This document shows, piece by piece, positions 50,388 through 56,866 of a DNA stretch of 64,000 nucleotides (the first letter of the stretch is position 1; each line of letters starts with the position of its first letter). This DNA comes from Deltaproteobacteria bacterium (GTDB taxonomy: Bacteria > Myxococcota_A > Polyangia > Polyangiales > Houyiibacteriaceae): NCBI GenBank assembly GCA_034670305.1, contig JAXMNT010000001.1, forward strand, positions 96,001-160,000, given 5' to 3'. The translations under genes and the position numbers were made by a program. A model generated the notes under the pieces. It searched no databases, was not told where the DNA came from, and saw nothing but the letters and a program-made list of their open reading frames with translations.

Positions 50388-50436
50388 GGGCAAGGGCAGG
50401 GGCAGGGGCAGGGGCAAGGGCAGGGGCAGGGGCAAG
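50388..50436 (+). repeat. (GGGCAR)n G-rich hexamer run
   Basis: Reverse complement of the 14313 hexamer type. Confidence 0.75.
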
Positions 50437-51301: not shown

Positions 51302-51766
51302 ATGATCTTCCTCCAATCCATGCTCTCCTCGGGCTCGATCATCGACCTGGATGGAACGTTCTTCCTCCAGCTCGGCATCTTCGTCGTCGCGTTCTTCGTT
51401 CTTCGAGCGCTCATCTTCAAACCCGTCGTCGCGGTGCTCGAAGCACGCGAAGAGGCGATCGAAGGCGCCGCCCGCGACGCCCTCCAGTTCGAGCGAGAGG
51501 CCGAAGAGAAGGAGACCGCGTTCTCCGACGAGATGCGCCAGGTCCGCGCCAAAGGCACCGCCCTTCGGGAGGAACTCCGGGCCAAGGCCAAGGAGACCGA
51601 AGCGCAACTGCTCGCCGACGTGCGCGCCACCACCCAGGCGGAGTTCGACGAGGCCGACGCGTTGCTCAGGGCCGAGGCCGACAAAGCCCGCGCCGAGATC
51701 GCCACCGGTACGCCGGCGCTCGCCGCTCAGATCGCCGCCAAGCTCCTCGATCGAGAGGTCGTCTGA
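51302..51766 (+). CDS. atpF: F0F1 ATP synthase subunit b'
   Basis: IDLDGTFFLQLGIF..LIFKPVVAVLEAREEAI; coiled coil; position in operon. Confidence 0.88.
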   Translation: MIFLQSMLSSGSIIDLDGTFFLQLGIFVVAFFVLRALIFKPVVAVLEAREEAIEGAARDALQFEREAEEKETAFSDEMRQVRAKGTALREELRAKAKETEAQLLADVRATTQAEFDEADALLRAEADKARAEIATGTPALAAQIAAKLLDREVV

Positions 51767-52626
51767 TGATTCGCCTGCAACGCACGCTGCTCGCTTTGGC
51801 CCTCTGCGGCTGGCCGATGATGTCGGCCGCGCAGGAGCCAGAGCTTCCGCCCGGTCACGAACACGAGACCGCGGAAGAACACGCCGCCCACGCGCACGAC
51901 GACGACCACGACCACGACGAAGACCACGATCACGACGAGCGTCCGGCCGGTCACGAACACGAGACCGCGGAAGAACACGCCGCCCACGCGCACGACGACG
52001 ACCACGACCACGAGCGTCCGCCCGGTCACGAACACGAGACCGCGGAAGAGCACGCCGCACACGCGCACGGCGACCACGACCACGGCGAGCACGCCCACGA
52101 AGGGCACGGCGAAGTCACGCTCTCGATGATCCTCGCGGACGGCAAGTTCCGCGCGTCGGTGCTCTGCTTCTTGATCCTCGGGTTCATCCTCATCTACGCC
52201 GGTCGCCGCAAGGTCCGCGCGTCGCTCGAAGCCCGGCGCCGCGAGATCGAAGACGCCGTCGCTGAAGCGCAGCGCAAGAAGGCCGCCGCGGAAGCGAAGC
52301 GAGAAGAGTTCGAAGCCCGTCTCGCCCAGCTCGACGACGAGGTCGAACGCATCCGCACCGAGGCCAAGCAGACGGCCGAAGAAGAGCGCGACCGCATCGT
52401 GGCCGAGGCCAAAGCGAAGGCCGAATCCGTGCGGCGCGACACGAAGTTCCAGATCGAGCAGCGCTTCAAGCAGATGAAAGAAGACCTCACGGGCGAAGCG
52501 ATCACCGCCGCCGTGGCGGCCGCCGAAGCCATGCTCAAGGACAAGACCACCGCATCGGACCAGCAGCGCCTGGCCGACGCCTACCTGAGCGAACTCGAAG
52601 TCGCAGCCCGCGAGGTGACCTCATGA
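51766..52626 (+). CDS. atpF: F0F1 ATP synthase subunit b with signal peptide and His-rich repeat extension
   Basis: TGATG-coupled start; TM FLILGFILIYAG; LEARRREI coiled coil; DQQRLADAYL; precedes atpH. Confidence 0.88.
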   Translation: MIRLQRTLLALALCGWPMMSAAQEPELPPGHEHETAEEHAAHAHDDDHDHDEDHDHDERPAGHEHETAEEHAAHAHDDDHDHERPPGHEHETAEEHAAHAHGDHDHGEHAHEGHGEVTLSMILADGKFRASVLCFLILGFILIYAGRRKVRASLEARRREIEDAVAEAQRKKAAAEAKREEFEARLAQLDDEVERIRTEAKQTAEEERDRIVAEAKAKAESVRRDTKFQIEQRFKQMKEDLTGEAITAAVAAAEAMLKDKTTASDQQRLADAYLSELEVAAREVTS

Positions 52627-53159
52627 GCGGTTCCGCATTCGGCCATCGCTACGCTACGGCGTTGCTCGAGTTGGCCGCCGAGACGAGTCAGACCGCCAAG
52701 ATCCAGCGCGACCTCGCGTCGGTCCTGGAGACCTGGCAGGAGAGCCGCGAGCTCCGCGACGTGTTCGAGAACCCCGCGTTCTCGACCGAAGTGCGCGCTG
52801 GCGTCCTCGAAGGCGTGTCGAAGCGCCTCGGCCTGAGCCCGCTTCTCACCAACACCCTTCGGCTCCTCTCGGACCGGGGCCGCTTGCGGCAGCTTCCGGA
52901 ACTCGTCGAGTCGTTCAACACGCTCGCCCAAGACGAGGGCGGCGTCGTCGCCGAGGTCACCTCCGCGACCGAGCTCTCCGCGTCCTACTACACGAAGCTC
53001 CAGATGAGCCTCGAGAAGTCCCTCGGCAAGAAGGTGACGGTGGTCAAGAAGACCGATCCGTCCCTCATCGCCGGCGTCGTCACCCGCGTGGGCGACAAAG
53101 TGTTCGATGGGACCGTCGCGTCCCGCCTCCGCCACCTCCGCGAGGGTCTGCTCCCGTAA
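52623..53159 (+). CDS. atpH: ATP synthase delta subunit
   Basis: RYATALLELA, AEVTSA, DPSLIAGVVTRVGDKVFDGTV. Confidence 0.95.
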   Translation: MSGSAFGHRYATALLELAAETSQTAKIQRDLASVLETWQESRELRDVFENPAFSTEVRAGVLEGVSKRLGLSPLLTNTLRLLSDRGRLRQLPELVESFNTLAQDEGGVVAEVTSATELSASYYTKLQMSLEKSLGKKVTVVKKTDPSLIAGVVTRVGDKVFDGTVASRLRHLREGLLP

Positions 53160-53242: not shown

Positions 53243-54913
<1,671 letters not shown>

Positions 54914-54919
54914 GCCGAA

Positions 54920-55801
54920 GTGGCCAACCTCAAAGCCATTCGCAAGCGCATCGGCAGCGTCAAGAACACGCAGAAGATCACGCGTGCGATGAAGCTCGTG
55001 GCCGCGGCGCGGTTGCGGCGGGCCCAGGAGGAGATCCTGCAGCTTCGTCCGTACGCGCTCAAGACCCTCGACGTGCTCAGCGCGGTCGCTGCCCGGACCG
55101 CGGACGAGACCGACGACCAGCACCGTCTGCTCGACGTGCGCAAAGTCGACCACGTCATGCTCGTCGTGCTCACGTCCGACCGCGGGCTCGCTGGCGCGTT
55201 CAACTCGAAGATCTGCGCCGCCGCGTACCAGAAGTGGAAGGCGCACGAGGCGGAGGGCCACAGGGTCAGCTTCACGGTGATCGGCCGCAAGGGCCGCGAG
55301 TACCTCAAGCGTCGCGACGCGCACATCAAGCACGACTTCACGGGCGTGTTCGAGGATCTCTCGATGGACCGCGCGGGTGAGATCGGCCGCACGATCGTAC
55401 ATGAGTACGAGCGCGCCGAGTCGCCCGACATGGACGCGTGTTACCTCGTCTACAACGAGTTCAAGAGCGCGATTGCCCAAGAGGTCGTGGTCGAGCAGCT
55501 CTTGCCCATCGTTCCGAAGGAACTCCCCGAAGACCAGGTCGGCGATTTCATCTACGAGCCCACCAAGAAGGCGCTGCTGGACCGGCTTTTGCCGATGTAC
55601 GTGGACGTCGAGGTCTACCGCGCGCTGCTCGAGTCGGTCGCTTCCGAACACGGCGCGCGCATGACCGCGATGGACGCCGCGACCACCAACGCGAGCGAGA
55701 TGATTCACAAGCTCACGCTCAAGTACAACCGAGCGCGACAGGCCGCGATCACCACCGAGTTGATGGAGATCATCGGTGGCGCGGAAGCCCTCAAGGGCTG
55801 A
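54920..55801 (+). CDS. atpG: ATP synthase gamma subunit
   Basis: RIGSVKNTQKITRAMKLVAAARL, SDRGLAGAFN, NRARQAAITTEL. Confidence 0.97.
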   Translation: MANLKAIRKRIGSVKNTQKITRAMKLVAAARLRRAQEEILQLRPYALKTLDVLSAVAARTADETDDQHRLLDVRKVDHVMLVVLTSDRGLAGAFNSKICAAAYQKWKAHEAEGHRVSFTVIGRKGREYLKRRDAHIKHDFTGVFEDLSMDRAGEIGRTIVHEYERAESPDMDACYLVYNEFKSAIAQEVVVEQLLPIVPKELPEDQVGDFIYEPTKKALLDRLLPMYVDVEVYRALLESVASEHGARMTAMDAATTNASEMIHKLTLKYNRARQAAITTELMEIIGGAEALKG

Positions 55802-56866
55802 TTGCCAACTCTGCTTCCATTGATCGCACCCTCGCCGGGGACACCGGCGGAGGTGCGTCGTCGTTTTCGGGACCTGCTGCGCGGCGGTTTCGAGGTCAAA
55901 CCTGCGGGGGAGGCCAAAGACGATCCGGCGCGGCTCGTCCGGCGCCACCCGGCGGCGTTCGAGCTGGATGTGTTCGGCCGAAAGATCTTCTTGAGCGAAG
56001 CGCGCCAGAACCCAGCCATCCGATTCTTCGTGGCCTACGTCGAAGACGTGGACGCGCGCACGCGCACGTTCCGCCCACGCATCTTCTACAAGGACATCTC
56101 GCTCGTGTGGCGCGTGGCGTCCCACATGATCGCGCAGGGCGACGAGTTCTGGATCGGCAAGGGCGACGTCGAGACGGTGGTGGAAGACGGCTACGAGGTG
56201 ACCCACTCGTTGGAGCACACGACCGACCTGCCGTTCGAGATCCAGGACGTGCTGGAGCAGTGCAACCGCGCGTCCAACGTGCGTGAGGACGAACCGGTGC
56301 TCTGGGATGTACTTCGCAACGCCCCCAGCGGCCGAGTGCAGCCGTACCAGGACTTCGTCGCACCGCGTCTTCGCGACGCGGGTCTGTCGCCCAACCGCGG
56401 CCGTCCGGTCGCCAAGTTCACCCGCGCCGGCGACCCGAGTTCGCTCCAGTTTCGTCCCGGGTTCGGGCCGAACTTCGACACGGCCGAGTTCACGTACTCC
56501 AAGAGCGTGACCTATGGCGGCCAGCTGCGCCGCGCCCGGATCCTCTCCGGCAACGGCAAGATCCAGTACCTGTTCTTCCAGGGCGAACAGCACGTCTGGA
56601 TCGCGCCGCCGCAGACCTTGCGGACCGAACTCTCCTCGTACGGCGTGCGCACCGCGTCGGTGAACGCCCCCGATGATCTCTTCCTGCCCGGGTTCGAGTA
56701 CCACTACGTCGACGAAGACAGCGGTGAGTTGGTCTCGCAGATCCCGAAAGGCTACGCGGGTCCGCAGAGCGAACACGACGACGGCCGAGCGTGCGCGCGC
56801 CCTTGGCTCGACGCCCTCCCGGTCGTACAAGACTTCCGCGCGGCGTTCGGCGACTGGTCCGGCTGA
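55802..56866 (+). CDS. Hypothetical protein immediately after atpG
   Basis: TTG right after the atpG stop; GC-biased coding frame; RIFYKDISLVWR, WIGKGD, PGFEYHY. Confidence 0.75.
   Translation: MPTLLPLIAPSPGTPAEVRRRFRDLLRGGFEVKPAGEAKDDPARLVRRHPAAFELDVFGRKIFLSEARQNPAIRFFVAYVEDVDARTRTFRPRIFYKDISLVWRVASHMIAQGDEFWIGKGDVETVVEDGYEVTHSLEHTTDLPFEIQDVLEQCNRASNVREDEPVLWDVLRNAPSGRVQPYQDFVAPRLRDAGLSPNRGRPVAKFTRAGDPSSLQFRPGFGPNFDTAEFTYSKSVTYGGQLRRARILSGNGKIQYLFFQGEQHVWIAPPQTLRTELSSYGVRTASVNAPDDLFLPGFEYHYVDEDSGELVSQIPKGYAGPQSEHDDGRACARPWLDALPVVQDFRAAFGDWSG

Follow-up and report, generated by a model that had tools for sequence, protein, structure and literature searches.

The DNA analysed here (the window) is a stretch of 64,000 nucleotides (nt) from a marine Deltaproteobacteria bacterium of the order Polyangiales (GenBank assembly GCA_034670305.1, contig JAXMNT010000001.1, positions 96,001 to 160,000 of the forward strand), and our subject is its atpF gene, which encodes subunit b of an F-type ATP synthase, and above all the part of the protein that precedes the membrane helix. 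A first interpretation made from the letters alone, called the sequence-only reading below, had described the product as a b subunit with a signal-like start, a periplasmic-side domain with many histidines and three repeats, and an otherwise normal b core. This anatomy was upheld by the translation, by the match to PF00430 and by a structure model made with AlphaFold 2 (AF2). Very probably, the gene encodes a genuine subunit b that is made as a precursor with a predicted Sec-type signal and has a type-I topology with about 100 amino acids (aa) outside the membrane, the outer part being a disordered polyampholyte that arose by recent tandem triplication. The features of the gene, in window coordinates, are as follows.

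51766 to 52626, plus strand: atpF (subunit b), 286 aa; PF00430 at 56.2 bits, cut-off 28.
51753 to 51758, plus strand: Shine-Dalgarno-like GAGAGG, 7 nt 5' of the b start codon; read from the sequence.
51766 to 51831, plus strand: signal-peptide-like segment, aa 1-22; from inspection and recurrence in relatives.
51832 to 52113, plus strand: predicted periplasmic tail, aa 23-116 (94 aa); from a composition script and AF2 disorder.
51847 to 51942, plus strand: repeat unit 1, aa 28-59, with a long Asp/His linker; from repeat searches and unit comparison.
51943 to 52017, plus strand: repeat unit 2, aa 60-84, with a short linker; from repeat searches, with a 67-nt exact block in common with unit 1.
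52018 to 52113, plus strand: repeat unit 3, aa 85-116, with a Gly/His linker and ending in the membrane-proximal His; from repeat searches and unit comparison.
52081 to 52083, plus strand: H106, nearly invariant in 32 aligned sequences.
52096 to 52098, plus strand: H111, invariant in 13 aligned sequences.
52105 to 52107, plus strand: H114, invariant in 32 aligned sequences.
52150 to 52203, plus strand: membrane helix core, aa 129-146, ASVLCFLILGFILIYAG; from a hydropathy script, with an AF2 helix from residue 119 onward.
52204 to 52623, plus strand: predicted cytoplasmic stalk helix of b; from AF2 helices 126-260 and 263-285 and PF00430 at 131-257.

Translation of 51766-52626 begins MIRLQRTLLALALCGWPMMSAAQ, in exact agreement with the sequence given by the sequence-only reading. 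The ATG of b (51766-51768) and the stop codon TGA of the upstream b' gene (51764-51766) have one A in common (TGATG), which bears out the proposal that the b start is coupled to the b' stop. By inspection, the first 22 residues resemble a signal peptide, with Arg3 and Arg6, a hydrophobic stretch at 7-16, Pro17, and Ser20-Ala21-Ala22 ahead of Gln23 (SAA/Q). The AF2 model, built with a 13-sequence alignment, has a helix at residues 3-20, and the A-x-A-Q end of the segment is seen again in relatives. In all 19 loci of the same family in other genomes, one open frame starts at an ATG, encodes a signal-like segment and then an acidic stretch that bears His, and continues into the membrane helix; the GTGATG/TGATG start arrangement is frequent among them. 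The GC content at third codon positions (0.80 in the frame of the tail, 0.905 in the +1 frame) was of no help in deciding the frame. From inspection and conservation, b is very probably made as a precursor with a putative Sec-type signal, which may be cleaved before Gln23.

Two other interpretations of the N-terminus were considered and rejected. Translation might start downstream at Met121 (MILADGK), as the sequence-only reading had allowed; this is unlikely, since every one of the 19 family loci keeps the upstream frame open, only 2 of the 20 loci, counting the window, have the Met, and no Shine-Dalgarno-like site is visible ahead of it. The second was a lipoprotein signal. The lipobox recognised by signal peptidase II has the pattern [LVI][ASTVI][GAS]C with a conserved Cys; the sequence here reads L-A-L-C14, which puts Leu at -1, and relatives do not keep the Cys.

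Counted by script over aa 24-116, the tail contains 26 His, 20 Glu, 14 Asp and 2 Arg, so that 34 of its residues are Asp or Glu. All 26 His, every one encoded by CAC, fall in the 89 aa encoded by 51847-52113; this count and the repeat searches agree with what had been noticed from the letters, including the number of repeats. Three units of PxGHEHETAEEHAAHAH are each followed by an Asp/His or a Gly/His run. At the DNA level the copies begin at 51832, 51928 and 52003, and the spacings of 96 and 75 nt are both multiples of 3, so length differences between units are in frame. Tandem Repeats Finder gave a period of 75 nt with a score of 271, and the 45-nt cores of the three units are 42-44/45 identical. 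Near-identity of this kind points to recent expansion or gene conversion.

The AF2 model gives the tail no secondary structure, with a predicted local distance difference test score (pLDDT) below 50 for residues 23-71, 76-80 and 82-114, that is, for nearly all of 23-114. Helices are predicted at 119-124, 126-260 and 263-285, almost continuous to the C-terminus, with pLDDT above 90 from about residue 130 over most of the length. Together with the hydropathy analysis, the model agrees with the layout expected of AtpF, one membrane helix that leads into a long, unbroken helix. Because the tail lies ahead of the sole membrane helix and after a signal-like segment, and because the C-terminal stalk is cytoplasmic, the tail is predicted to be periplasmic. 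Searches of b at E values up to 0.01 revealed no Pfam family besides PF00430 and no curated metal-binding domain in the tail. The unit motif was found nowhere else in the genome, save for one loosely similar loop, and a database search with the tail alone returned 4 matches among 7997 candidates, all of them AtpF; the module was not seen in other protein families.

The gene order in the window is b'-b-delta-alpha-gamma. All five genes have clear Pfam matches, and their junctions are overlapping or short, the b stop codon overlapping the ATG of atpH. The neighbours of b are listed here.

51302 to 51766, plus strand: atpF' (subunit b'), 154 aa; PF00430 at 40.1 bits; without signal peptide and without tail.
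52623 to 53159, plus strand: atpH (delta/OSCP); PF00213 at 151.8 bits.
53246 to 54913, plus strand: atpA (alpha), 555 aa; PF00006, PF00306 and PF02874.
54920 to 55801, plus strand: atpG (gamma); PF00231 at 341 bits.

The PF00430 match of b, which is twice the Pfam threshold for AtpF, covers just aa 131-257. Scores against the NCBIfam equivalog models lie below their cut-offs (best NF005606, 57.1 bits versus 137; TIGR01144, 41 versus 65.5). As judged from these profiles b is a divergent AtpF, and the missed equivalog cut-off leaves the Pfam-based family membership unaffected. Residue 12 of b' aligns with residue 120 of b; of the two, b alone has the signal-like segment and the tail. The genes for subunits a and c are on another contig of the 7.9-Mb assembly, where a single subunit a gene was found; small membrane proteins encoded 5' of it are candidate AtpI/AtpZ-like proteins. 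It is thereby nearly established that the atpF of the window encodes subunit b of the only F-type ATP synthase detected in this organism.

Relatives were collected with a word-indexed search, which gave 68, and with a HMMER search of 1.84 billion representatives, which gave 4052 matches at E values up to 0.001, the best 150 of the 4052 being used. The analysis covered 207 of the 210 proteins collected, counting the query; of the other three, two did not align to the core and one was lost in the script. A signal-like start together with at least 35 aa ahead of the membrane helix was present in 185 of the 207. The median tail among these 185 is 53 aa long and has 6 His (11%), in line with the statement in the sequence-only reading that related b subunits have shorter, His-containing extensions. 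Asp plus Glu outnumber Lys plus Arg in 184 of the 185 tails; 40 tails have at least 10 His and three have at least 20. A His lies no more than 25 aa from the membrane helix in 169 tails, and HG occurs in the last 30 aa before the helix in 144.

The size and the repeats had been singled out as the unusual part, and this also held among the 207 proteins: the window tail has the highest His count (26, as against 0 to 21 in the other tails), and it alone carries the motif E(T/S/V)A(E/A)EH three times. The motif was found in 13 of the 207, once in eight and twice in four. Forms with two units occur in separate assemblies (P0010, P0011, P0013, P0015, L002 and L028). L002 belongs to another genus. 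Its two units specify nearly identical peptides despite 9 mismatches in 45 bases, amounting to seven synonymous changes and one codon changed. Since these units differ mostly at synonymous sites, the peptide is under purifying selection and is not mere slippage-prone filler. Taken over most relatives, the outer tail is under compositional selection and, in part of the clade, under sequence selection as well.

The named genome records with close relatives are from Polyangiales, Sandaracinaceae and other Myxococcota metagenome-assembled genomes (MAGs), with a few under vague or odd labels. A survey of AtpF N-termini in Myxococcota, which the sequence-only reading had suggested, sampled 40 regions in as many genomes, which belong to 39 families spread over the phylum. 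A tblastn match was obtained in 34, and in 32 of these the b gene starts, by eye, with a signal-like segment. At least one His precedes the helix in 21 of the 32, and at least three in 10. As predicted from these N-termini, a signal-bearing b is phylum-wide, while long His-rich tails are concentrated in the order to which the window belongs. A similarly designed b, P0066, maps to Pirellulaceae MAGs, so that the design is found in Planctomycetota as well. In the Pirellulaceae b proteins of L177-L180, a signal-like start is followed by roughly 100 aa of tail with Lys, Glu, Ala and His, of independent sequence.

The b subunit described here is like canonical AtpF of E. coli and Bacillus PS3 in its N-terminal helix, its N-out orientation, its cytoplasmic stalk helix and the position of its gene before that for delta. 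Canonical b, as in E. coli, has few residues outside the membrane and no signal peptide, whereas b here has 22 signal-like residues and about 100 aa outside. Two diverged b-type genes in tandem are likewise found where the stalk is a b/b' heterodimer, in cyanobacteria, chloroplasts and alphaproteobacteria. Subunit I (b) of chloroplasts has a short N-terminal presequence, which is removed; we know of no His-rich luminal or periplasmic tail on a cyanobacterial, chloroplast or alphaproteobacterial b or b'. Searches of full-text papers outside subscription journals turned up no description of a bacterial b subunit that is His-rich or bears a signal.

The neighbourhood of the tail can be judged from two structural reports, on Bacillus PS3 and E. 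coli, in which the b N-termini reach the periplasm next to subunit a (PMC6377231; PMC7251095). In Bacillus PS3, the two b helices lie one on each side of subunit a, and the periplasmic half-channel is a cavity among a helices 1, 3, 4 and 5 (PMC6377231). In E. coli, subunit a has a periplasmic N-terminal helix, and the N-terminus of b touches this helix as well as a C-terminus of c (PMC7251095). By analogy with these structures, a flexible chain of 94 aa anchored beside subunit a can reach the inlet. A His-rich appendage by a proton channel is described for the ice worm Mesenchytraeus solifugus, whose ATP6 has an 18-aa His-rich C-terminal extension that has been proposed to be a proton shuttle (PMC6047255); fusion of this extension to E. 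coli AtpB increased ATP synthesis about 5-fold (PMC12035521). Like the tail of b, it is a disordered His-rich appendage on an F0 stator subunit by the mouth of the proton channel. The ice-worm extension is, however, on subunit a and on the exit (matrix/cytoplasmic) side and has no sequence relation to the b tail, whereas the tail of b has 94 aa, is acidic, follows a signal-like segment at the N-terminal end of its subunit and lies on the entry (periplasmic) side.

His/acid-rich segments elsewhere in the 7.9-Mb genome were sought with a six-frame scan for 40-aa windows containing 8 or more His and 8 or more Asp/Glu. The scan gave 75 frames, of which 12 were judged to be real coding frames; among these, the tail of b is fourth by peak His density, and its His/acid richness is far above chance. 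Five of the 12 real frames are in energy-converting membrane complexes, namely b, NuoL, subunit IV of a caa3 oxidase, an NrfD-like subunit and a neighbouring multi-helix membrane protein. NuoL (L107, G000:C9:146834-149839; TIGR01974 at 627.7 bits) has an Asp/His-rich insert of about 45 aa, DDHAHDEDEDDAHDDDHDDAHDDAHGHDDHGHGDHG, between two late helices, which we take to be helices 13 and 14, with the insert probably on the cytoplasmic side, the uptake side of that pump. NuoL also has an unexplained C-terminal extension of about 290 aa beyond its last helix. One respiratory cluster (G000:C4:34775-45495; L108, L109 and L111) encodes three proteins with such segments: caa3 subunit IV (TIGR02229, 76.1 bits), with a His-rich N-terminus and a C-terminal His/Asp/Glu tail of about 75 aa; the multi-helix membrane protein, which is of no known family and has a (GDEH)n loop; and the NrfD-like subunit (PF03916), with a His-rich C-terminal tail. 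Among the caa3 subunit IV genes of 20 relatives, acidic C-terminal tails are common, with His often swapped for Ala, Glu or Pro.

Two further subunits of the ATP synthase itself are encoded on G000:C25. In subunit a (284 aa; 1300-2154 of L021), some 65 aa precede the first helix; the N-terminus bears His and begins MGFFDEHAHEAALPEH, and the protein ends EEHEEHH. Subunit c (108 aa; 2224-2550 of L021) has a signal-like start ending VPAFAQ and an acidic tip, DGEGANSND, before its first helix. The closest solved c subunits are those of proton-translocating rings from cyanobacteria and chloroplasts. A Q...ES...Y pattern in the c ring raised the question of Na+ coupling; one of the closest proton rings has ES too.

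The function that we favour for the tail, with a probability of roughly 40%, is that of a local proton reservoir or collecting antenna at the inlet of subunit a. The outer tail has very probably grown by recent tandem triplication of a unit of 25-32 aa that relatives carry once or twice. On the antenna proposal, the tail, tethered beside subunit a, would bind protons near neutral to mildly alkaline pH through its interleaved imidazoles and carboxylates and pass them to the inlet, which would raise the local proton supply when the bulk proton concentration is low, as in seawater. The tail would also bind Zn, Ni or Cu if these are present, and the metal may modulate the effect. We favour this proposal because of the position of the tail at the inlet, its imidazole/carboxylate composition, the conservation of this composition in about 185 relatives and the ice-worm precedent. 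The genome context favours it as well, with five of the 12 His/acid-rich frames on energy-converting complexes, a His-bearing N-terminus on a, an acidic tip on c, and proton-translocating rings as the closest solved relatives of c.

Several points weigh against a proton antenna. The evidence for it is circumstantial and would fit a metal-binding function as well, and purifying selection on the motif is easier to reconcile with a specific binding site than with a simple buffer. Some relatives (L012, L019, P0024 and P0035) have tails of about 200 aa that are rich in Ala/Glu/Met/Pro or Gln/Pro and have few His; long tails of this kind argue that His is dispensable for the basic role of the tail. 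Either b or b' may be the nearer to the inlet in this organism. The extension in the ice worm lies across the membrane, on the exit side, and can serve only as an analogy. The insert of NuoL is probably cytoplasmic, by the topology given above, so that His/acid-rich tails are not all on one face of the membrane. Within this genome, the same composition is also found on a CzcB-type metal-efflux adaptor and on other non-respiratory proteins. Finally, cleavage of the signal segment is a prediction; if the segment stays on, b would form a hairpin in which the tail, unchanged, is a loop in the periplasm.

The main rival proposal, possible if somewhat unlikely, is that the tail is a periplasmic module that binds Zn, Ni, Co or Cu and acts as a sink guarding the inlet, as a store or as a metal-dependent regulator. 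Its HDHDH, HxH and HxxH runs with flanking carboxylates are typical metal ligands by established chemistry, and the unit PxGHE(H/G)ETAEEHAAH, which is under purifying selection, has His and Glu at the helix-like spacing i+3/i+4; selection at the level of sequence would suit a defined site. The CzcB/NccB-type adaptor of similar composition matches TIGR00999 with an E value of 3.3e-32 (111.7 bits, below the cut-off of 319.3) and the resistance-nodulation-division (RND) adaptor model TIGR01730 at 120.7 bits, above its cut-off of 94.9, and the same composition is seen in another protein of the genome, one that has a metal motif of the CPVCGM type. His-rich periplasmic segments that bind metal include the loops of ZnuA-type proteins. 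Another precedent is P. aeruginosa PA4063, described as a His-rich, disordered periplasmic zinc binder (PMC8561739), whose segments have their His plus Asp/Glu content, disorder and periplasmic location in common with the tail of b. PA4063-type segments sit, however, on soluble metal-trafficking proteins, whereas the tail of b is tethered to the ATP synthase, and no homology between them was detected. Nor does any metal-binding family match the tail (Pfam, same E value limit as above). The ATP synthase requires no transition metal; the tails of relatives range from 0 to 21 His, some being nearly His-free, which would be odd for a dedicated site; and metal binding leaves the enrichment of such segments on respiratory complexes unexplained.

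A role in docking or assembly, in which the tail would engage loops of a or c, a respiratory complex or an envelope component, or would act as an acidic positioning spacer, is improbable. The motif is kept across genera and is specific to AtpF, the membrane-adjacent H114 is invariant in its 32 sequences, and the contacts of the E. coli b N-terminus with subunits a and c offer a model for such an interaction. Against this, the motif is present in just 13 of 207 relatives while the compositional bias is general, AF2 gives the tail no structure, and no partner is identifiable.

The number of repeat units bears on the last alternative, and was compared with independent contigs from four runs of one study, possibly the source sample of the assembly itself. 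Contig pieces from the four runs cover 51500-51875, 51846-51878, 51947-52046 and 52020-52400, with breaks inside the repeats; 51879-51946 is covered by no listed contig piece, and no listed contig from the four runs spans the array. The assembly has exactly two copies of a 33-nt piece, one in unit 1 and one in unit 3; in the four runs, the depth of this piece is about 1.4-1.9 times that of the flank, as an assembly with three units predicts. The longest exact repeat in the array is 67 nt, within the span of ordinary reads. Three copies are consistent with the independent contigs and remain unproven, because no contig crosses the array; the sequence-only reading had named an assembly artefact in the repeat number as a possible refutation. 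P0002, a 95%-identical b on a 2.6-kb contig, is annotated as a protein of 166 aa that begins just after the tail, and may be a gene call cut short at an assembly break in the repeats. Neutral expansion, by low-complexity slippage on an exposed tail or partly as a copy-number artefact, would cover the third unit only and not the tail, and is doubtful even there: the near-identity of the units, which makes them recent, the richness of the genome in short tandem repeats, the contig breaks and the P0002 annotation agree with it, whereas every insertion or deletion is in frame, two-unit forms are present in separate assemblies, the units of L002 diverge mostly at synonymous sites, and the read depth and the shortness of the longest exact repeat fit three real units.

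The proton antenna can be extended to a wider and more conjectural scheme, which we think unlikely, in which Polyangia from marine and soil habitats, and independently some Pirellulaceae, would have genetically tunable proton antennae, made of disordered His/carboxylate tails, where their energy-converting machines take up protons, with capacity set by repeat copy number, forming a localised proton circuit along the membrane. In such a scheme, the tail of b at the periplasmic inlet would be aided by the His/acid-bearing tips on a and c, and, provided that the topology given above is correct, NuoL-type pumps would carry a tail where protons enter them from the cytoplasm. The tail of the window, with three units and 26 His, would be the most expanded known example.

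The usual picture of subunit b is of a passive strut of which hardly anything lies outside the membrane. What is new here is a lineage-wide and apparently undescribed outer appendage on an ordinary subunit b, of which the window holds the extreme case. A signal-bearing b with an outer tail in most of about 200 relatives is an elaboration of one of the best-studied enzymes in biology. If the tail feeds protons to the enzyme, the relatives would provide a natural graded series, from 0 to 26 His and from one to three units, with which to probe whether local proton supply limits ATP synthase; localised versus bulk coupling is a long-standing question in bioenergetics. If it binds metal, it would give bacterial ATP synthases a first example of a metal-handling appendage.

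Some minor observations concern the rest of the locus. Neither beta nor epsilon is in this part of the window, where no search aimed at them was made; a 354-aa open reading frame without a Pfam match (55802-56866) lies directly after gamma, the usual place of beta. In alpha (53246-54913), Pfam splits the nucleotide-binding domain in two, the best stretch being residues 149-306, which match profile positions 1-157 of 213; the split match points to some 50 inserted residues past about residue 306. Between genes at 50388-50434 of the window there is a hexanucleotide tandem repeat, (GGGCAG) x 7.8, and the six-frame scan revealed dozens of comparable short-period arrays genome-wide, which read as HRHRHR or GHGHGH in some frames.

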